From: Octopus vulgaris
Lineage: Eukaryota
Direction: 5' to 3'
Length of the DNA stretch: 64,000 bases
NCBI GenBank assembly: GCA_951406725.2
Contig: OX597814.1
Location: 103,044,001-103,108,000, forward strand
Shown: positions 4,301 to 52,300 of the stretch, in pieces
How positions within the stretch are numbered: position 1 is the first letter of the stretch
How the letters are laid out: the number at the start of each line of letters is the position of its first letter
Notes under the pieces: generated by a model
What the model was told of the DNA's origin: nothing
What the model saw: the letters and a program-made list of their open reading frames with translations, nothing else
Databases searched by the model: none
Translations under genes and position numbers: made by a program

Positions 4301-7300
4301 GCCCTGCCTATTTTTATTCTAGCAGCTACGCTTTCAGAGCATCTACCCCTGCTACTGACTTGGTCACCTAGGTAATGGAAGCTACCCACTACTTATTTTC
4401 TCCACTAGCATGTGATGGAATCTATTTTCTGTACATGTTTGGTGTTCATTGTACCTGTGCACCTTCCACAAATGAAAACTATCTACCCAGTTAACTTTCC
4501 TCTGATATTGCTGCACCTCTAATGTGTCCATAGCTTGCACCGGGTACATCTTATGGAGTTTCTACCTATGCTTTTTTTACAGATTGAGCAGGGCCATCTA
4601 ACTGAAGGGATTTGTGATTTGTCTGCCTTCCTGCTTACTAAGACTTTGGTTTTTGCTAGGTTAACCCTAAGGCCCTTCAATTCTAGACCTTGCTCCCACA
4701 CCTGAAACAACTTCTCTAGTTCTGGTACTAATTCAACTATAATGAATAAGAGGGTGCTGAGGACTGATTCTTGGTGAACCCCTGCTTCTACCCAGAATTC
4801 TTCACTATACTAGTTGCCAACCCTCACCTTACTGACAGCATCCCTGTACATGGCTTGTACAGCTCTCACCAACCACTCATCTATCCTTACTTTCTGCATT
4901 GACCACCAGATAAAGGATCAGGAGACCCAGTCAAAGGCTTTCTCCATGTCAACACAAGCCAAATACAGAGGTTTATTTTTGGCTAGGTACTTCTCCTGTA
5001 GCTGTTTTACCAGTAATATAGCATCAGTGGCCTCTCTCTCTCTCTCTGGCACAAACCCAAAACCCTCTCCCTAATTAGTTGGGCTATGACCTTCTCCATG
5101 ACTTTCATCACTTGTCTGATCCAACAATCTGATACCTCTGTAATTATTTCTAAGGCATCACCTTTAACTTTGTAGCAGTTGATTGTGGTTCTGCTACACC
5201 AGTCATTGGGTATGATTCCTTCAAGTATCACATGGTTAACTCTATGGGTAACTAGCCCAAACCTACACAACCAAATATTTGAAGTGGTGATTCCTGTCGA
5301 GCCAGAGAATTTCCCTGTCTTCACACTCTTAATTGCTTTATCTACCAAAGTACTGTCAATTTGGATAGCTTGTCCCTTAATTGGGTCAACATTTGGCAGG
5401 CTCTCTTTCTCACATTCATTCTCTTCATTTAGCAACCTTTCGTAGTGACATCTCCAAGTCTCTTTCTTTGCAGAATTATTAAATGCAAGTGAACAACAAT
5501 CCATGTGAACACATTTCTCTCCTATGGCATCACAATTCTCACACACTGTCTTGCAATACAAAACACTTCAAGTTTCTGGTCCTCATGATGCAGAACATTG
5601 GCAAATCTCTTCTTTTCTGCTTCCCCTCTGGCTTCTCCTAGCTTCTCTTCTGGCTAAGTGAATCTGTCTCCTAGCTCCTCTTCTGGCTCTCAGCTACCAC
5701 TGCACTTCCAGTCTTGTTTCTTTCCCTAATGACCCTGTTAATTACATTGTTCCACCACCATGTCACCTTAGGTCAAGAGAGGGCTTTGCACCAGCCACAT
5801 CATCATCATCATTTAATGTCCGCTTTCCATGCAGGCAATGGGTTGGACAGTCTGACTGGGGACTGGTGAGCCAGATGGCTGCACCAGGCTCCAATCTTGA
5901 TCTGGCAAAGTTTCTACAGCTGGATGCCCTTCCTAATGCCAACCACTGCAAGAGTGTAGTGGGTGCTTTTACGTGCCACCGGCACGAGGGCCAGTCAGGC
6001 GGTACTGGCAACGGCCACGCTCGAATGTTCCACATATTTGTCCTGTAGGAACCTCCAGTTGTCTTCCACATTATGTAATGCTATATCCTCCTCTTTTTCA
6101 TCAAAAGCTGCAAGTAATACGTCTCTAAATCTCTGTCCATTCAGGGGATTCTTAAGCTTCCAGACCCTTCTTTTTTATGCTGGTCATCCTCTGGGCAGCC
6201 ATTTAGCCCTGTTCCTGAAGTCACTAACTACTAATCTATGTTGTATGGTGCATTCTTCACTTGGGAAAGTTTTGGCTTTTATAAGTAGCCACCTTTCTCA
6301 TTTACTGGTGAGAATGTAGTCAATCTGACTAGTGTGTCCACCAGATCAGTAGGTGAACAGGTGACTGGCAGGTTTGCTGAAGTTAGTATTACACATCATA
6401 AGATTATTTGCATCACAGAACTCCAGCAGCCTGGTTTCCTCCTCGTTGCGGGAACCGCATCCATTCCTACTAAGTACACCATGGATGTTGTCTAACATGA
6501 CCATTGAAGTCACCAGCCACAAAGAGAAGGTCCCTGTCATTCGTTGACAAAGTAGTCTGCAAGAGGGTCATAAGATCAATCTTTCTGTTCATCAGGTAGC
6601 CCTGGCTGAGGGGCATAGGCCAAGATAATGGTTGCTATGCCATGTTGCAGCATTAGTCTAAGCTTAAGTATTCTATCACAGAATCTGACTACTTCGATTA
6701 CCGTATCAACCCATTTCTCAGCAAGGAGTATACCCATGCCCCATCAGTGTTCTCTACCCAGAAAATCTTATACCTATGTTCTTTGCGCGTAAGGAACCTA
6801 GCAGAACCTCCTCTTCACCATAACTCTTGGATACAACACAAATCTACACGCCTCCATTCAAGTAACTCACCAGGCCTACCTTTCAATGTGCCAATTCTGA
6901 GGGTGTGAGTTGGCGAGACCCAGGGATGGGGTACAGCATTTTGCATCTGAACAGAAAGCTCACATGTGCGTTTGGCAGACATCATAAACATACAAATAGG
7001 CTTCAACCTGCATACACTTCACAATCACTTGTTTACCAGGAGAGAGACACTAGATAGGAAGGGGGGGAGTGTTCCATGTAGGCAACCATTAGAAGTACTA
7101 GGAGAAAGACTTCCAGTACAGGTGGCTGGGAGGGTGCAATGCAAACGACAAAACACTATGGACGCCCTATTCCCTAGCTAAAGGCGATGTAACATATCCA
7201 CAAACAAAGCAAAAACCACTAATTAACATGGGAAAGCAAGAATACAGACATAGTATGGGCAAGCGAAAATGTAGTAGGTAAGAAAACGGAGAGAGAGAGG

Positions 7301-39960: not shown

Positions 39961-40283
39961 TAGAATGCTAATTTGCTGAGGAATATCATTCAAGGGGAAC
40001 ACCAGTTTGCCCCAAGTATATCATTTTATAGGGCAACACCTGTTTACCAAGGTATATCATCTAATTCACTAACAAATTGGTAGAATAAAAAAAAGAAGAA
40101 ACATTTGTTTTAAGTAAACCTTATCCATCTCTTTCTGGGTTGTAAATGATATTTATAAATTATTTTAAAAATATTATTCAAAATAATTTCTCTGGTGACT
40201 TTATATTAAATATTTAGAACATTATATAAACTTAATTTTTTTTGTAAACAAATTTTCTTTTTTCTTTTGCAGTAGAATGAAAC

Positions 40284-40567
40284 ATGCCAAACATTGTCCA
40301 AGTTCAAAAAACCGAAGTCTTGAAATGCAAGCTTCGTCATGCATTTCTTGCCGTACAACATTGTGCATCTGTGTGGCAGGAATGTGCTCGTCAGCAAGAA
40401 GTGCAACTTAAGGAACTTTTTAACCTATGTGAACAATACCAGTGTTGTTATGAAGCAAATGTGGAATCTTTAGAGCTCCCTGCTAGTCTGAATGAAGTAA
40501 AATCCAAGTTACTTTATGTTATTGTGGAGAAGATAGAACAAAAACTGTGTGCAGTTCAAGCCACAAT
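40284..40567 (+). CDS. C1orf109: C1orf109 coding exon 1
   Basis: Acceptor TTTTCTTTTGCAG at 40272, ATG at 40284, donor AT|GTAAGT, phase 2. Confidence 0.9.
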
Positions 40568-43500
40568 GTAAGTGTTGTGAGTTAATTACTAAGACCACAG
40601 GGGTTCAGTTTCTCATTTGACTCTAATACAAGATTTGTACATGGATGGCCATCATTTCCTCACTCTCCTACCTTTGGAAGTATTCTTTCCTTTTCCATCT
40701 TCTGCTACAATTTCCATTTGAAATGCAAATCAAATGGAAATTGTAGTTAAGATACCTGTGCTGGTGACACATTAAAAGCACCATCCGAACGTGGCAGATG
40801 CCAGCTCCGCCTGACTGATGTCCAAGTCGGTGACATGTAAAAGCACCAACCGACATGGCCGTTTGCCAGCCTCATCTGGCCCCTGTGCTGGTGGCACATA
40901 AAAAGCACCCACTACACTCACAGAGTGGTTGGTGTTAGGAAGGGCATCCAGCTGTAGAAACACTGCTAGATCAGACTGGAGCCTGGTGCAGCCTCTTGGC
41001 TTCCCAGACCCCGGTCGAACCGTCCAACCCATGCTAGCATGGAAAACGGACGTTAAACGATGATGATGATGTGTGTAGATAAGATGCATGTATAAATATG
41101 TGTGCGTGTATAATTATCATTATCAATTAACGTCTGTTATCCATGCTGGCATGGGTTGAACAGTTCAACAGCAGATGGTGAGACAGAGGATTGCACAATG
41201 CTCAAATGTCTGCTTTGGCTTGGTTTCTGCAGCTGGATGTCCTTCAGAATGCCAGTCATTTTACAGAATGTACTGGTTACGTTTTATGTACAGCCAGCAC
41301 TAGTGAGGTTAACCAAGTAACTCACGAGACCCTTCAGCTGAGGGTGGGGGAAGTAGTATTGAGATAGGTTGACAGATGTCACATGATGACAGGTTAAAGC
41401 CCCAGGCACAGGTTTCTTGCTGCTGGGGAGACATGTGGTTATAGTGAAGATGTGTCAGAGCATCAAATTACAGGAATGTTAAATTACCTTGAACAAACAG
41501 ACAACACGAAGTCGAGATACTCTTCCTGTGTAGAAAGTAATTTATTTAATGTTGGTGCTGAGACAAACTGTACTCGGTAGTAAACTGTGTAAGGTGGTTG
41601 GTAAACAAATAGGCACAGTTTAGAATAGAGACAATCCTTTAGTTTTGTTGAGGACAAGACAATCTCTCAAGTGTTGATACCATGGTAAAACATACCCAGT
41701 TGTACAGTGTTTAGTGTTAAAAAGAACATCCAGCCATACAAACCCTGTGAAGAAAAGAATGTATAAGGAAAATGTGGTTCCTGACTCATCTAGAAAGGTG
41801 GTGACTCAAATAGCAGCTGACTCAGATTATGAGGACCTATCTAACCCATGACAACCTAGAAAGTGGGCGAAAATAATGATGATGATGATGATGATGATAG
41901 AGGTGGACGTATGGAATTGGACAGTGTGAGTGAAATCTGTATGTCATGTTATGCCATTAGTTCTGATCTTGAAAAGATAATGTTTATCTTTTGGGTTTGT
42001 ACATATTTTTTTTATTAATGTTTGTATCTGAATTGGCAGACATCGATATGATAAACTTATTAACTGCATTCTATTTTATTGAAGTAATGTCTCTGTCTTT
42101 TCATTTTTAGATGTGAATTTCAAAAATCTTATGACAAAGTGAATCAAGCAAGAATCAATGCTTTTGAACAAAAACCCGACATGGTTTACTTGACTGAGAG
42201 TAGAGCCATGTCCCCAACTCTGGCTACCATGTTGGAATGGTTAGATGATACAGAAAGACAGGTTTTTGTACAATATCCTTTGTTGATTTCATTCTTTACA
42301 TTATTGATCACTTCATTTTTTTTTTAAGGAATAAATCAGCTGAATATTAATTGAATATTAGTGTCTCGGAGTGGTTGGTGTTAGGAAGGGCATCCAGCTG
42401 TAGAAACTCTGCCAGATCAAAATTGGAGCCTGGTGCAGCCATCTGGTTCGCCAGCCCTCAGTCAAAATCATCCAACCCATGCTAGCATGGAAAGCGGACG
42501 TTAAACGATGATGATGATGTCTCCCGCTGTCCACATGGAAAGCCAATTTGATGACTGATTGATTGATAAGTTAGTGAAATATATTCCAGTGGTTCTGAAA
42601 CCTGTAGAACTTTCTCCCAGGCTGGTGAAATTGATGCGTGATGAATAACCTGGCCACCTGTAGGTCAGTGTTTGCAGGAATGAGGAACATATCATTTGCT
42701 TTGATTACTTGCAATAGATTGACCTAAGCTCAAGTGATGAGGTTAAGCTGATACAAACAAGTGTGTGTGTTTCAGTTCTTAGTGCCCTCTTATTTATCTA
42801 GCCCTCCATGCCATAATAGAGGGATGAGTAGTGATACATCCACCCATCTTGGTGAAATTGAGATTCTGGAGGCTATATATATATAATTTCAGGAAACCAG
42901 TCAGTTCACCTGATGACCTATAAATCTGGTGACCATACTAGCCAGATTGACTACATTCTCATTGGAAAGAAAGATTCATGGTTGCTCATAAATGCAGAAA
43001 CTTTCCCAGGTGAAGAATGTATCTCTCAGCGTAGTGGTTTCAGACTATGGGCATGAAGGATTCCAAGAAGCAAGCCAATTTGGAAAAGGACCTGGAAGCT
43101 TAAGGCTCTTCTGAATAGCCAGGGATTTAGAGACTGAATCCTAACTGAAGCATTTATTGAGAAGGAGGTAGAGTTACAGACAGGTAACATAGAGGATAAC
43201 TGGAAGTTCCTACGAGACAACTTATCAAGAGCCACAGACCAAATTTGTGGCTGCTTGCCAAGTCCCAGCCAGACCTGGAGTGACATGGTAGTGGAAGAGT
43301 GTAGTTGGCAGGGCCATTAGAGCAAAGAAGCAGGCCTGGAAGAGTGGCAGTAGCAGGGAACTATATTGGGTAGTGAGAATAGAAGCTAGGAGGCAGGTAT
43401 ACTTAGCTAGGGGTGAAGCAGAAAGGAAGAAGTTTGCCAATGTGTTGTGGTGTGAGGATCAACAGCTTGAAGTGTTTTGATTTGCAAGACAGCGAGTCAG

Positions 43501-44678
43501 GGAAAATTGTGATGGAGAGAAATGCATTCACATGGATGATGGTTCACTTGCAGTTAGGGACTCTGCAAAGAAAGGGGCTTGGAAGTGTCACTATGAAAGG
43601 CTGCTAGATGTAGAGAATGCATGGGAGAAGGAGAGTCTGTCTAATGTGGATCTAACAGAGGGACCAGCTATCCAAATAGACCATAACGTGTTAGCTAAAT
43701 TAGATAGAGCCATGACAGATATGAAGACGGGGAAATCTTCTGCAGGAATAACTGCTGAGGTGCTTAAAATATCTGGTGGTGTGGGTTATGGTCTCGCCAC
43801 CCTTATAGTCAATCAGGTTGTATACTAGGGAGTTGTACCCAATGACTGGTGTAGCAACACCATAGTCACTGCTACAAAGGCAAGGGTGATGCCTTAGATA
43901 GAAATAATTACAGAGGTATCAAATTGTTGGATCAGGTGATAAAAGTTACGGGGAAGGTCATAGCCCAACTAATTAGGAAGAGAGTTAGTCTAGATGAGAT
44001 ACAGTTTGATTTTGTGCTGGGGAAAAGCACCACTGATGCTATATTTCTGGTAAGGCAGCTGCAGGAGAAGTACCTGGCCAAAGATAAGCATGGAGAAACA
44101 GATGTGAAAAAGATGAACATATTCAATGTTAATCTATATCCATTTCTATTTTTCTTAGTACTGGTGTAATTTTCTGGTTTCCTACAGCTATATTTGAACT
44201 GTTGTTCTTCTTATCCATAGGACTTTGCCATTTCATGAAGAGTGGATTCACTTTTGTGAAGTCTGAAACCATTTATTTCAATTTTTATTATTTTGGTTAG
44301 TGATGTATTTATTTAAAAGTATATATATATATGTGTGTGTGTGTGTGTCTATATGTATGTAAGTATATATGTATGTGTGTGTGTATATATATATATATAA
44401 TATATACATATTAGAGGGAAACCACTATGTGGACACCCTTATGCTAGAAATAAGACCATAGCGGATCTATTTCTAGCATAAGGGTGTCCACATAGTGGTT
44501 TCCCTCTAATATGTATATAATACAATTTTACTGAACCTTCAGTTTTTTATATGAGACCACTGGTGTGAAATCGATGTTAATTAAATTAATATCTAATTTC
44601 TCACCCTCATTTTAAATTTATATCTATATATATATATATATACCCATGTTAGCATGGAAAACGGACGTTAAATGATGA

Positions 44679-44741
<63 letters not shown>

Positions 44742-47700
44742 AGAAGGGGGGGGGGTTGTGTATAAACAAAGTATGTTTATAAATGATTATTTCAGGCAAG
44801 CTAAACTAATGAGTTTATTAATTTGCTTCCTTAACTAATTTTAAGCTACACCTCAAGAAATATTTACTTGATGAAATGAAATATGGTGACGTGTCAATCC
44901 TGCAGCAGCTTCTCAAATCCTGGTTACTTGATGATACTAAAGTCATCAATAAAATCCAAGGTAAAGGATACTATATTGGTAATCTTTCAGTAATTCTTTT
45001 TTTCATCCTCTTACGTTTTCAGCCTGACACCAAGGTCAATATGAGGAAATAATTTACAAACCACTTCTATAAAAATTGTCTGTTTAGGACCAGGTTTTCT
45101 ATTTTAGAAAAATCTACGTGTTTGGAGATTGTGAAAAGACTGCTGGCTTTCGTTTCATTAATACTTATCTGTGGTTGTGGTCGGCAGTGGAAGCTGTGCT
45201 CTTGATCCCCTTCTGTGTATGCATCTATGTTACATTTTCTCTTACTGTCACTGCTTCTCCTTCTTTGGTTATAGAAGTGTGATTGTTGGCATTGATGAAG
45301 GTCTGATGCACTCAGCTCTTTGCTGTTCCAAAGGTCAGGAAGCCTTCAGCTGGTCTGGTTTGTCATATATGTTAGCACTGTGGTTTTCTCCCTTCTACTA
45401 CCATTCATTCTGCTTACACTCTTCAAACTGAAAGTGATCCGGGATGCTAGATAAATTCTCAGATGCCACCAACATCTGGAACTTCAGAGACAAATCCATT
45501 CTATTCTTCCACAGATTGAACTTGAGTGCTATAATCTTTGTTCTTCCTCATTGCTGCCACTCCAGCCTGGTCCGTGTTGGGATTCATCTTTTGGTCACTC
45601 ATCTTTCCAAGTGAAATAAGATCCCGGTAAAATCTTGGGTTGCATTGGTGGCCATAGCCAGAATCTTAGTGTCCACCTTATTGTTAAGGGACAATCGTCC
45701 TAAGTTGTTTACTTCTTGTTATAAATCCAATGCAGGACCACGCTTTCCACAGGCATTTTATGACTTGTACTGGACTGGGACACTGTAGCTTTCTTTCTTT
45801 TCTGTTTGAGGCAATGACAAATTCATAGTCATGGCCGATGCCAGTGTCGCGTAACTGGCACCCGTGGCAGTGGCATGTAAAAGGCACCCATTACACTCTT
45901 GGAGTGGTTGGTGTTAAGAAGGGCATCCAGTCATAGAAATCATTCCAAATCAGACTGAAACCTGGTGCAGCTCTCCAGCTTACCAGTTCCAGTCAAACCA
46001 TGTAACCCATGCCAGCATGGAAAGCGGATGTTAAATGAAGATGATTATGATGCATTAGTTTTTTTTGTTTTGGGATGAGCTATGTACTTCAGCAACAGGA
46101 AATTTCATGAATCTCAAGCATGTGATATCAGATTTATCACTATCATCATCATCATCATGGCAGTATAAAGGTACATTGATTGGATCAGGTCTGTTCACCC
46201 AACTGTGGAATGTGCGACGATTCGGAAGAGACCACAGCTCACATTGTATTGGAATGTCCACAGTAAGCTCAGAATAAATACAAACAGTGTTGGTATAAGA
46301 TTGCAATAATACATTGGAATTTTTACAGGAAATTTAGTTTTGCATGCAGATAAAAAAAGTTATAACCATTTTGTGGGACTAGAGATGCAAACCCTCGAAA
46401 ATCCAAGACATCATAAGAATATGTAAAGGTTCTTAATACAGTTGATATTCTATGGGTTCGTGTTGTGTGTGAATGTATATGTATGGACCAGTTACGAGTC
46501 TATCATTTCAATATAAACCATTCATGAACATTTGGAATCTATTGTTGTGAAGGTTGTATAGTCTGAGCCTGTTTGTGACTTCTACTGAATCATTTGTTCC
46601 CCACCACTGGAGTAATAACATTTTTATGAGCCGTAAAGGGATGTCACAACTAACCACACGTATAGAATTATCTGTATATCACTGTCATCCATATGGGTAA
46701 TCATTCTAGCATAAACTAATGGCTACCTGTAATAGGGGAAATATGATTGAGCTGTAACCACATCCAACTGAATAACGAAACTCATTTGAATTTGGTTTCT
46801 GCGGTTGAACCACTCAATTACCTCCCTTGTATTAATTCAGAGGCCAAGTTGCATTTGGTGTTGAATTAGGGGAACTACTGTAATCTTTTTGCCTATCTTA
46901 CCTATATCTAATATTGATGGGTTGATTAATTTAATAGTGAGCTATCTGCTAAAGTCTAGTGTATGCTCTTTCACTTTATTGGTACAGGTTTTCCATTCTT
47001 TCTGAGTGGATTATCAAATCCAGGGAATTATGGACACTTAATCTGTAGTGTGGAACTTGTTTCTATTTCTTTTAAACAAACTTCTTTTACAGCGTGGAAG
47101 GTGTTTATAAGCGTTTTAAGAAACACACAAAAACCATTAGATTCACTTCAACATTTAAATTTAATTTGTCAAAATATTTTCGTCGCTTTGAGACTGCGAC
47201 CTGTTCACTGACAAAATTCCATGCTGCATTTTAAATGGCTTATAAACACCTTCCATTCTGCAATTGTTTTTGTTCCAGCATACGATCTCAGATCAGGTCA
47301 CTTGCTATGCAAGTACATCTCCGCAAACTTCTTTTAATCATGGATAATCATTCAACTATGGTAGTAGTTGAATAATATTCTTAAGGTTGCAATTTACTCA
47401 CATGCAGCATCTTTCAGAGCTTGTCGCTAATTCAGTTCTGAACCAAATTGAAAACTCTTAACACTTTTGAAGAGGACTGGTCCCTAGCTACATTTTGGCA
47501 TTAAAAAATTGAGATTTGATCCAGTAGAAAAAAGTTTACATCAAAATTTGTAGCGACGTTTTTGGAGAGTAAGTAATGCAACCAATCAAGTTTAGATCTA
47601 AATAACTTTTTTTTATAATAAAGATTGTTTGCCAATATAACATGGCAGTCCTGGTTTAGGACTAATGTTGCTGTAATTTAGCCCCAGGGGACACCATCTA

Positions 47701-49375
47701 CAGCTGGCTATACAACACAATCTGTGTCCTTATATTTTCGAACAGATCGTGTTGTATAGTCAACTGTAGATGATGTCTCCTGGGGCTAAATTACAGCAAC
47801 ATTCGTCCTAAACCAGGACTGCCATGTAATGTTGGCAAACAATCTTTACTACAAGGTACTGTTGCTGAATATCTCACGTTATGAGATTTAGAAATAGTAA
47901 TTTTCGAACTTTTTTTAACTTTAAAAGCAAAATATATTTATCTTAGCTTCAATGATAGAAGAAAGCATGAAGAATTTCATAGTTTTGTTCCTATGCATCA
48001 AAAATGTGTATCAAAAAAGTTGTGAGGTAAAATATCATGAAGAAAAATTGAAGTACTTTGATTAAGCTTAAATGAAAGAGCTCAATTTGAGGAATTTCAT
48101 GGTATCAATCTCTTGCAATGAAGTTTTAAAAGAAAAATTATGAGTGCTTGTTTCTCAAATTTGAGGGTGATAATATAATTGTATACTTTTTTATGAATAT
48201 AGTTAAGGGGGCTTTTAATATGTGAGCGACATCATTGAGGTAAGGAAAAAAATTATCAATGACACCACTAATTGACACAATATTAGTAAGCATTACAGCA
48301 TATCCTGGAAAAGACATGGATTACATGGAAAAATGCAAGCAAGAGAAATAATATTCTTATGATTGTAAACCTGGAAAATAACAGGACAAGTTATTACATT
48401 TGGAAAAGTTCAGAACAACTTATTAAATCTGGTAAAATATAGAACAAGAAAATTTTTACTTAAAATATTGCAGCTAAGAATAAAATTTGAATATTAAAAA
48501 TCATTTGATTTTAATTTACAAAGTAACATTGTGGCACGTAAAAAGCACCATCCATCCGTGGCCATTTGCCAGCCCCGTCTGGCACCTGTGCCGGTGGTAC
48601 GTAAAAAGCACCCACTACACTCACGGAGTGGTTGGTGTTAGGAAGGGCATCCAGCTGTAGAAACATTGCCAGATCAGACTGGGCCTGGTGCAGCCTTCTG
48701 GCTTCCCAGACCCCAGTTGAACCGTCCAACCCATGCTAGCATGGAAAGCGGAATACTTTAAAAATGAGAGCCAGAAGTCCCAATATAGCTAAAGTTTTAT
48801 GACAAGTAGAATAGTATATATGGTACGCAAATTCATTATGTAAAAAATAGGCATTGGGTCAAGACAGAAAATGTGGAGACTTGGCAGTAATAACTAATTT
48901 TTGTATTCATCATCATCATCATCATCATCATTTAACAATAGTCTTTTGTCAGAAACTTCCTAATTAGCATTTATTGTGAAAAACTGATTTTGATTGTTTG
49001 GTCTCAACTCAAATGATCAAGAATGTACCGAGATTGGATTATTTAAAGATCTTTCTTTTTCAGTATTTATGATGGGTTTTATGACAAATATTCTTTTGTA
49101 CCATCATGATTTGTTGTTACCTGTTTAACAAATATTAGAATATCCTGATTGCATCTTTTTCACGAATGTCAGTTTGTCCCAAAACATAAAAGCAAGACAT
49201 TTGTCAGCAAACAAACCCTTACTCACTGTTCTTTCTTTCACATTGAGTTTTTATGCTTTTTAATGGAAACATTTAATGTTTTCATCAGTGTTGAAGTTTC
49301 TGTAAATTTTATTGTTTGTTTCTTTGTTTTCCAGAAAGACTTCTTTATTTGGAGGATTTCATGAACGAACCTTAA
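40284..49375 (+). CDS. C1orf109: C1orf109 / AIRIM orthologue (AFG2/SPATA5 complex, pre-60S maturation), 4 coding exons, 603 nt, 200 aa
   Basis: Exons 40284-40567, 42111-42272, 44845-44960, 49335-49375. LRHAFLAVQHCASVWQ, LFNLCEQ, SPTLATMLEWLDDTERQVFVQLHLKKYLL and IQERLLYLEDFMNEP* are colinear with recalled human C1orf109 (LKKCFPVVEEQQGLWQ, LSNLAEQ, SPSVADMLEWLQDIERHYRKSYLKRKYLL, VQDILLNVSFFLEE). AATAAA at 49658. Confidence 0.9.
42111..42272 (+). CDS. C1orf109: C1orf109 coding exon 2
   Basis: Acceptor TTCATTTTTAG. Ends at U12 donor CA|ATATCCTTT; alternative end at 42261 using weak CAG|GTTTTT. Confidence 0.88.
42850..44090 (+). mobile_element. RTE LINE fragment inside the U12 intron
   Basis: GDHTSQIDYIL, WKCHYERLL, VVPNDW, NYRGIKLLDQVIK, STTDAIFLVRQLQEKYL. 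Confidence 0.9.
44401..44519. repeat. Perfect 52-bp inverted repeat with 15-nt loop
   Basis: 44401-44452 is the exact reverse complement of 44468-44519; flanked by (TA)n tracts. Confidence 0.95.
44845..44960 (+). CDS. C1orf109: C1orf109 coding exon 3 (LHLKKYLLDEMKYGDVSILQQLLKSW...)
   Basis: Preceded by U12 branch point TTCCTTAAC at 44827-44835; donor AAG|GTAAAG, phase 1. Starts at 44846 if the GT-AG alternative is used. Confidence 0.88.
47090..47323. mobile_element. Small non-autonomous Penelope/retrozyme-like insertion with hammerhead motif and 13-bp TSD
   Basis: TSD CAAACTTCTTTTA at 47077-47089 and 47324-47336; about 30-bp internal inverted repeat; hammerhead fold at 47165-47215 on the minus strand. 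Confidence 0.7.
47165..47215 (-). ncRNA. Type I minimal hammerhead ribozyme candidate (G3:C8 core variant)
   Basis: UUUGUCA-GUGAACA-G-GUCGC-AGUCUCAAA-GCGAC-GAA-AAUAUU-U-UGACAAA: 7-bp stem I, 5-bp stem II, palindromic stem III. Confidence 0.6.
47619..47848. repeat. 107-bp imperfect inverted repeat with 16-nt loop
   Basis: 47619-47725 versus 47742-47848; 8 mismatches by manual alignment, no indels. Confidence 0.92.
49335..49375 (+). CDS. C1orf109: C1orf109 terminal coding exon (ERLLYLEDFMNEP*)
   Basis: Strong acceptor TTTGTTTTCCAG, phase 1, TAA at 49373-49375. Confidence 0.85.
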
Positions 49376-52300
49376 TTAAGGATTGGGAATCAAGCAGGAT
49401 CTCATTGGGTACATTCTCCGGATCAATACTAAAAGAAAACAAAATTTATTTGTAATTAATTGGGTTAAACATGTCATTGCTCTCAGGGAAAATACAAGTG
49501 TGTTTCAATAGACACCACAGATTGAAAAGTTTTAGATGAAAGTCAAAGAGGAACGTGAGAAATGGTGACTTTTGGAAGCTATTTTATTTCTGTCTAAATC
49601 TTGTTCTATTTAACAATTTGAATAGTTATTTGGTATTGAGGCAGCAGTTAAGGAATCAATAAATGTTCATTGATCTATATGGAGAAATGCTTTACCTAAA
49701 TTCTAAAATCTTTATTCAGCTGATTTGATTTGGTAAGCACTAAGCTTCATTTTATTTGTGGATTGTAAATTTACTCAGCAGATATCCTTAGATTAAAACA
49801 ACAGTCGTTGTTGTTGTTAGCGGCTTTGTTGAAATGTTACTGGTGTTTGTTGTGAGTAATTTACAATCTCTATAAAATAGTTGCTTTACAATGTTGAGGT
49901 CAGTTGATGCTTTACATTAGGGTTGTTTGTGTGAGTAGCTCTTTCTTGGAACAGTAGCTGAGTACTGTGTAGATATTGCAGAGGTGAGGAGTTGTATTAG
50001 AAAGTTTGTTTTTGAGTAGTTGGTACTCATTGGGTTGATGTGAGGACTTGGTACGCTGTATAGTTTTTATTCTTTATTGAGAATATTAATATTAGTGGTA
50101 GCTATTGTTGAAGAAGTTACTTTGAGGATGTAATATCGTGTCAGGACACTCAGTGCATGTCGCAGTTAGTTGTCAGAGGAACTCTGGAGTATTGCTGCCA
50201 ATATTAAACTGGATTAGACTGCCTCAGTTATATCTCTATGTTCCAGTTTCAAATCCTGCCAAGGCTACATTTGTCCCTTTTAAACTAAATTCTAGCAATG
50301 TTCTTGTTTCTTATAAACCTTTGGCCTCATTAGACAGAATTTCATGTGATAATATAAAGGTGCAGTAGCAGAATTGGTAGTTTTTGTGATAGTAACTACC
50401 TAATGGTATTTAGTTTTGTCTTTCTACATTCCGAGTTCAAATCTTGCTGGGTCAAATTTGCCTTTCACTCCTCTGAGATCAGTAAAATAACTATTAAAAG
50501 ATAACTGAAGTTGAATTATTTAAGTATATTTCCCTTCTTAAGCACACTTAATGCCTATTCCAGTGTGAGGGATGAATATTGGTTAATAGAGATGGGGTGG
50601 GTTTGACAGAAATAGTAAAGTGCCAAATGAAATTTCTTAGTTTATTCTTGGTTAAAAAATCAATCTCCTGAAAATTTATAAAATAAATACCAAAAAATAA
50701 GTTGGCTTCATTTAAATAATTCCACTCCTACAAATTAAGGGTTCTGTTTAAGGATGGTCTGAAAATCAAAGGGGGACATCACAAGCTGAAGATGGCATCT
50801 TAAGCTAAGGGAGACATCAAAAGCTAACTTCATCTAAAAGAAATAACTTGGTATTTTCAAATTAAAAATAGAATTTTACTTGATTATGGAATGAAAAGGC
50901 TAAAAGTAATTAAAATGCTTGTAGTAATACTGCTGTTTGTTCACAAATTTTCGTTAAGAATAAATAAAAAAACTGTTTAAAGAAATTGTTTTAATTATTG
51001 AAATAGGTTGTTAAATGTAGAATTGTTAGCATAACATGAAAAAATAGTTGTTTTAGATAATTTGAGCTTTGCTTAGTTTAGAAGGTTACTTCACTTTCAC
51101 TGACAAATTTAGATATTTTAAGAAATCTGATGTGATTGATTTTTTAAAAATGATTTTACATCAATTTATTGGGGCAATTACTTTTGGAACTGGGTATACG
51201 TCCTACCACTTTCCACTCAGCTGGAGCAAATAGATCTCAGTGCTTTGCTCAAACATATAAGACAATGGAAGTTGTAAAATTTGAACTTATGACCTTGAAG
51301 TTGCTAGGCCAACACTTGAACCTTACTGGTAACAAAAAATAAAAAATGAAGTAATAAAATTTAATTTCATAGTGGCCTGTTGTCAGAAGACAAATTTTTT
51401 TTATCTGAATAAAAAATAAATGATTCTGAAGTATTTGAGATATTAAGTTATTGCAATAATTAGTTTCTCTTGAGATTATTACAAACCTTTGCAAGTTTCT
51501 AATTAATAATCATATTGATTAATTTAATAATTGTTGATTGTTGTTTTTATTGTTAAGCATTTCCACCAATTATGAAAACTGTCAATCACAAACAGTTAAA
51601 TATTAAACCATTAAAACTGATATTGGTCTTTTATGTGAGATGAAGGTGCCAGGCTTTTAACTACATTGTCATGTTTGAACCTTATTGCGACAGCTGTTGT
51701 GTTGTGGCCATAATTCTGTTTCCCTCAGTTGATCTTACTACCACCAGAAGACTTGAGTTGTACTTTGCTATAAATAGTGGGGTTAACCATGATATTACAT
51801 CCAGCTGTTAAACTAATCACTCCAACAGGAAACAACTTTGTAAAAGCACCATTCTATTCCTGCTAGCATGATCTATGGATATAGAACAGTTTGGTCAAAA
51901 AAAATATATCTCTGGTTTTCTTTTACATATTTCTGGTTCAGCACTAAATTTCTTTGTTGGCCATTTTATTGCCATCATAAATTATCATGATCCCCCCCCC
52001 CACATTTTTTTTTTAAAATCTTACACCAGAACATTGATGAGTGTGATATATTATTAAATATAACAAATGATCATATTCCAAATGTTTTTTGTTTGGTTTT
52101 GAAAATAAAATAAATTTAAAACTGACATCTTTTTTTTTTATTCTTTTGGTTTTTTTCATGGTATCAGTTTTATTACTTTTTTATTTTCATTTTAATCTGT
52201 TAAGTTATGTCTTGTAACTTACAGACAGTTTATGCAGTAAGGGATAGATATGAAAATTTATTGAGTCTAGTGACATTTGGTAAAGAGATACAAAGTGGTT

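Follow-up and report, generated by a model that had tools for sequence, protein, structure and literature searches.

An AT-AA minor intron, as assembled, in the C1orf109/AIRIM gene of Octopus vulgaris

We analysed 64,000 nucleotides (nt) of Octopus vulgaris DNA (assembly GCA_951406725.2, contig OX597814.1, positions 103,044,001 to 103,108,000 of the forward strand; hereafter the window, in whose coordinates all positions are given) carrying the gene for C1orf109/AIRIM, a ribosome-maturation factor that belongs to the SPATA5-SPATA5L1-CINP-C1orf109 complex of late 60S maturation (PMC9004343, PMC12019325, PMC11055677). Between the second and third coding exons of this gene lies an intron of 2572 nt (42273-44844) that begins with AT and, as assembled, ends with AA, and the junction it leaves dominates in the transcripts. 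Very probably, this is an old minor intron in an ordinary position, which is likely spliced by the U11/U12 machinery and yields a product of 200 amino acids (aa). A first-pass annotation of the window had put forward three explanations, namely, a true AT-AA intron prone to mis-annotation, a switch between the major and minor spliceosomes giving 200- and 196-aa isoforms, and a conversion from U12 to U2 type in progress. The first is borne out in all four transcript contig sets that we examined, and the other two are not: no GT-AG joint was seen in these sets, and the GT in question belongs to a valine codon.

Transcript evidence

Of the 24 runs listed, four (X4, X9, X6 and X7, representing 4 of the 19 holders) were overlaid on the locus (40200-49800); they come from four studies (P2, P5, P3 and P4) and three coded organisms (A, A, B and C). 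The run data are contigs spliced at the three introns. In each of the four runs, one unbroken contig crosses all four exons, joining 42272 to 44845. The middle joint is recorded from 42271 to 44844, skips 2572 nt and can be shifted by 1 nt onwards (42272 and 44844 are both A), and the flanking joints are GT..AG. The depth of the bin covering the third coding exon (exon C) is practically that of the single contig (28.70/28.70, 21.10/21.10, 8.88/8.89 and 7.24/7.23; a further piece of 30 nt with depth 2 would raise the value by 0.19), so that the AT-AA contig fully accounts for it and no second contig lies on exon C in any of the four runs. Thus, the junction check proposed in the first-pass annotation, carried out here on contigs, recovered AT-AA in all four sets, and neither GT-AG nor AT-AG was seen. 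As the main junction, GT-AG, AT-AG and both AT-AC variants are absent from the four sets, from which rare forms can escape, and no joint from 42261 is present among the 15 joints shown (204 others exist). Because contigs drop rare variants, these data speak for the dominance of AT-AA and not for the absence of other forms. Position 42141 in the second exon reads A instead of G in three of the four runs, probably an allelic or between-species difference.

Gene identity and reading frame

The assignment to C1orf109 holds: the 200-aa model aligns with the human Protein Data Bank chain 9gwj_A (E 2e-13, residues 16-197) with no gap across the splice junction, which also confirms the colinearity with the human peptide put forward in the first-pass annotation. 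PF15011 is matched by two single exons with scores below the family cut-off, and the same family is precomputed for the database proteins P0003 and P0004. At the protein level, records named Octopus match the first coding exon with 100% identity.

Each of 24 candidate end positions (44836-44859) was tried from both the AT and the GT donor, and the frame outcomes described earlier were reproduced throughout. From the AT donor, ending at AA 44844 gives 200 aa, and AG 44845, AC 44849 and AC 44851 all lead to stops, with products of 159, 155 and 157 aa, respectively. From the weak donor GT 42262, AG 44845 is in frame and gives 196 aa without the residues VFVQ, and the inner acceptors 44187, 44220 and 44795 run into stops after 11, 6 and 3 codons. 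The stops of the out-of-frame AT-AG and AT-AC products fall 81-89 nt upstream of the last junction, and the usual distance rule for nonsense-mediated decay is 50-55 nt; such slips would likely be cleared by decay, which would sharpen the steady-state picture. The 196-aa product, and the 154-aa product obtained when GT 42262 is joined to the last exon, have their stop in the last exon, so that both would escape decay; the missing GT-AG form in the contigs thus reflects low use.

Intron signals and minor-spliceosome machinery

Both U12 motifs are where the first-pass annotation placed them. The donor ATATCCTTT at 42273 follows ...GTA CA in phase 2 and fits the consensus RTATCCTT, and TTCCTTAAC at 44827-44835 fits the branch consensus TTCCTTRAY, expected near the 3' end (about 8-14 nt), with 10 nt to the intron end, which reads CTAATTTTAA/GCTAC (continuing GCTACAC; here and below the slash marks the splice junction). 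On the plus strand of the window, ATATCCTTT occurs twice against 0.6 expected and TTCCTTAAC once against 0.4 expected. The rarity of either 9-mer alone is unremarkable; their placement at both ends of an intron removed from transcripts, at the position of a human U12 intron, is beyond chance. Further matches to ATATCCT on the plus strand lie at 6083, 15240, 27401, 48300, 49140 and 49782.

Genome G000 encodes the small nuclear RNAs (snRNAs) U12 (125 bits), U11 (94.5 bits) and U6atac, all above the Rfam cut-offs, and U4atac is listed for Octopus bimaculoides (PMC11347168 Table S7). Nucleotides 17-25 of the U12 snRNA (locus L002) pair with TTCCTTA[A]CT at nine of nine bases with A44834 bulged, U11 is complementary to CCTTT of the donor, and one U6atac copy is complementary to TCCTTT. 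For U6atac, 43 of 46 scored candidates in G000 match, across many contigs. Two of these loci (L012:1501-1616 and L013:1501-1617) share 95.7% of the snRNA sequence and have a common repeat adjoining each 3' end, a pattern resembling that of retrocopies. For O. bimaculoides, a published table already gives 68 putative U6atac copies, 45 of them of high confidence (PMC11347168 Table S7).

A 13-nt same-sense identity to nucleotides 7-19 of the U12 snRNA (L002) is found at 44802-44814, upstream of the branch site by 12 nt. Over both strands, the window contains no longer match to U12 (1 of 1278 tiles). When this stretch together with the branch site was sought in G000 as a general signal, this locus was the only match; the identity is probably due to chance.

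In the favoured explanation, U11 and U6atac would recognise ATATCCTTT, U12 would pair with the branch site and bulge A44834, and the 3' end would then be picked within a short window past the branch. There, AA at +10 would likely beat AG at +11, as an A in first position is a poor match for G in last position; the two ACs, at +15 and +17, would lie past the optimum distance. The GT 11 nt upstream would be a cryptic major donor created by the valine codon, with a low-level leak at most. In minor introns, AT-AG is reported to be disfavoured and the optimum branch distance to be 11-13 nt (PMC3584512), with a range of 8-14 nt in another survey (PMC1557818). The positioning of the 3' end by branch-point distance, which the first-pass annotation invoked, does not by itself account for this choice: the AG that goes unused is at +11, just as far from the branch as the human intron end.

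Orthologous intron and conservation

Human C1orf109 is listed among the genes with minor introns (PMC6865273). Its intron (chr1:37683438-37686272) is a U12-type GT-AG intron in phase 2, with the flanks R-K-S/Y-L (PMC8280824 supplement), and it is listed as responding to U12 and U6atac morpholinos but not to CENATAC depletion (PMC11347168 Table S6). The Ser of R-K-S/Y-L aligns to octopus Gln149. The two introns share gene family, aligned codon, phase, U12 donor and branch, and G as the first exon base; their lengths are similar as well (about 2.8 kb in human and 2.57 kb in octopus). The human intron, however, is of the G type and ends with AG/G at +11 from the branch adenosine by our count (an alternative AG is at +7), whereas the octopus intron is of the A type and ends with AA at +10, so that both terminal bases differ. 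In the human-mouse subtype switches recorded in PMC1557818, by contrast, just one position differs. Thus, the comparison across animals that had been proposed, made here with human, yields the same intron type at the same codon and phase but not the same ends, and points to an old minor intron with differing terminal bases. In Table S8 of PMC11347168, the O. bimaculoides cell for C1orf109 reads 'no_ortholog' (cell located by counting along a row copied by hand).

The residues VFVQ lie within a predicted helix (132-159, mean predicted local distance difference test score 84), and their positions are kept in the human chain and in all three other full-length invertebrate homologues aligned (Argonauta and two others). 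At position 146, Argonauta carries Ile and the other two of these three carry Val, as read from the protein; the GT of Val146 cannot be present in an Ile codon, and the U2 donor is, judged from the protein, not kept in this nearest outgroup. Conservation was assessed on these three invertebrate sequences and human, P0010-P0012, P0014 and P0015 being excluded as fragments or read-through models, and the protein searches were shallow (2 matches among 28 candidates, and 8 matches in another search). The intron was also sought in DNA from other animals by scanning metagenomes with alignment A3, which gave 177 pattern matches and no confirmed relative. The sole match of a degenerate exon-plus-donor pattern, L010, was rejected as a chance hit, being unrelated, of 51% GC and interrupted by in-frame stops.

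In the library protein P0011, ...QQYPL occurs twice at the aligned position, the read-through signature of a phase-2 U12 donor; for comparison, read-through of the donor in the window gives QVFVQYPL. This hints at a minor intron at the same place in the animal of origin of P0011, which would mislead gene callers there.

Comparison with known non-canonical minor introns

AT-AA ends make up 8 of the 66 non-canonical U12 cases recorded in four species (PMC1557818), a source that also describes frequent mis-mapping and subtype switching. In a later survey, AT-AA is the commonest non-canonical end of animal and plant minor introns, and among conserved minor introns of animals, non-canonical ends account for about 3.8% (PMC10639083); O. 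sinensis is within the data of that survey, and its tables may include the present intron. The octopus intron resembles the AT-AA (A-type, AT-AN) U12 introns of human RASGRP4, FLJ21106 and MSH3 (PMC1557818 Tables 2-3) in its full donor and branch site, A at +1 and AA close behind the branch, as well as in the fact that pipelines restricted to canonical ends often mis-map such introns. It differs from them in gene and lineage, and in having an AG 1 nt and ACs 5 and 7 nt downstream, none of which keeps the frame or is used in the contigs. Our literature search, which mostly left subscription journals outside its coverage, found no report on this octopus intron.

Database gene models

The 90% protein cluster of the gene has five members. 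P0005 (200 aa; RefSeq isoform X1 of O. bimaculoides and O. sinensis C1orf109/AIRIM) equals the AT-AA model with 0 mismatches. Two GenBank predictions for O. vulgaris equal other models, P0003 (196 aa) the GT-AG model with 0 mismatches and P0006 (157 aa) the AT-AC model ending at 44851. P0007 (154 aa; RefSeq O. bimaculoides isoform X2) corresponds, with one mismatch, to a model that splices GT 42262 to the last exon and skips exon C, and P0008 is a single-exon fragment. The expectation that pipelines would mis-annotate the intron is thus correct for the two GenBank predictions, which picked canonical ends, but RefSeq already annotates the correct 200-aa product. RefSeq isoforms are usually backed by reads, and there may be some low-level use of the GT donor. 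No source describing how the 196- and 157-aa models were built was found in the literature.

Alternative readings

Several points weigh against the AT-AA reading. The joint is ambiguous by 1 nt, and AA..TA fits equally; we prefer AT..AA because only it begins at the U12 donor. The last base of the intron is invisible in mRNA, and with no contig reaching it, 44844 is given by the assembly. Furthermore, the RNA nature of the contigs, which come from runs not recorded as RNA, was guessed by a tool and rare forms are dropped from them, database models using GT 42262 exist, the distance of +10 by our count is slightly under the optimum of 11-13 nt (counting conventions may differ), and U12 dependence and the branch adenosine in octopus are predicted from motifs and complementarity.

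The alternative that fares best is a functional twintron, in which the major spliceosome would use GT 42262 with AG 44845 (196 aa) or with the acceptor of the last exon (154 aa), regulated by tissue or stage. As in the U2/U12 twintrons of Drosophila prospero, SRSF10 and CENATAC, and in the 18 vertebrate cases of PMC3564746 (the main text of which does not mention C1orf109), the stretch could also be read as a U2 intron overlapping the U12 one, which GT 42262 and AG 44845 flank; the sites are close and the frame could hold. Moreover, both products would resist decay, each equals a database model, the RefSeq X2 isoform in particular suggesting real use of the donor, and a small unaccounted excess of depth in the last-exon bin in three of the four runs (only X4 is clean) leaves room for a rare contig skipping exon C. 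However, a twintron is defined by alternative use by both spliceosomes (PMC3564746, PMC8329584), of which the octopus contigs show none: there is neither a GT joint among those shown nor a second contig on exon C. The donor itself is weak, fitting the U2 consensus at 6 of 9 positions (8 and 7 for the two U2 donors used in the gene), its GT is imposed by Val146 and, judged from the protein, absent in Argonauta, the 196-aa form would lack four conserved helix positions, and the origin of its model was not found in the literature. We therefore consider a twintron unproven and unlikely. We give a similarly slim, barely better chance to the idea that the weak GT is a working major-spliceosome bypass for times when removal of the slow AT-AA intron lags, switching to decay-resistant 154- or 196-aa AIRIM.

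A second alternative accepts the junction but not the AA, so that an assembly error or a rare allele would mask an AT-AC or AT-AG end (position 44844 being C rather than A, or a single C or G being lost after it). All three changes leave the mRNA identical, loss of one G from the human arrangement (AG/G at +11) gives exactly AA/G at +10, and the acceptor stretch has no second copy in G000 and hence no internal check. On the other side, AT-AA introns are a real class and, by estimate rather than measurement, occur among minor introns far more often than an erroneous base does at any single chosen position of a contiguous assembly, and the 196-aa model requires AG/CTA as in the window (its UniRef100 label counts two members at genus level). 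This is a weak hint that a second assembly carries the same letters, although the models may not be independent of the assembly of the window. Such masking appears very improbable.

Least credible of all is an ongoing U12-to-U2 conversion in which the GT donor would take over. Conversion by way of a cryptic U2 donor close by has been described (PMC3584512, PMC8329584), but here the donor and the branch site are perfect U12 signals, no junction other than the U12 one was seen and four conserved residues would be lost.

Feature coordinates and neighbouring repeats

Near-perfect inverted repeats resembling miniature inverted-repeat transposable elements are found at 44398-44522 (55-nt arms, 98%; within the U12 intron) and 47613-47854 (113-nt arms, 91%). 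A repeat resembling a short interspersed nuclear element and ending in (GAT)n has copies at 40856-41071, 42364-42519, 45835-46049 and 48559-48773, across all three introns, and these copies attract very high contig depth.

Table 1. Exons and intron signals of C1orf109/AIRIM in the window.
Feature	Position	Strand	Evidence and remarks
First coding exon, ATG at 40284	40273..40567	+	Contigs span 40271/2-40567 in 4/4 runs
Second coding exon, phase 2 end (CA of Gln149 codon)	42111..42272	+	Joints 40567 to 42111 and 42271 to 44844 (shiftable by 1)
Weak cryptic U2-type donor CAG/GTTTTT, GT = Val146 codon	42259..42267	+	Database models only (196 aa, 154 aa); absent from the contig joints shown
U12-type (minor) intron of 2572 nt with AT...AA ends in the assembly	42273..44844	+	Spliced out in 4/4 runs
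U12-type 5' splice site ATATCCTTT	42273..42281	+	Motif; complementary to U11 and one U6atac copy
U12-type branch site TTCCTTAACT, putative branch adenosine 44834	44827..44836	+	Motif; U12 nt 17-25 (L002) pairs 9/9, A44834 bulged
Non-canonical AA 3' end, 10 nt from putative branch A	44843..44844	+	Next base G 44845 exonic; base per assembly
Third coding exon (exon C)	44845..44960	+	4/4 contigs, 0 other letters
Last exon, stop 49373-49375	49335..49800	+	Contigs; transcript continues beyond 49800

Conclusions

We conclude that the octopus C1orf109/AIRIM gene contains a real minor intron with, as assembled, AT-AA ends, an ordinary member of a known rare class, and knowledge of minor introns in general is unchanged by it. 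The gene model is settled at 200 aa, not 196 or 157. If the unlikely GT bypass were true, minor-spliceosome activity would tune 60S ribosome maturation in certain tissues or stages. The intron also documents a difference in subtype, GT-AG against AT-AA, where a published table scores no O. bimaculoides orthologue. Furthermore, it provides a clean natural case of 3' end choice by the minor spliceosome, in which AA is used despite an AG 1 nt and ACs 5 and 7 nt further on; this use fits a preference linking the first and last bases of the intron and could make the locus a handy reporter.

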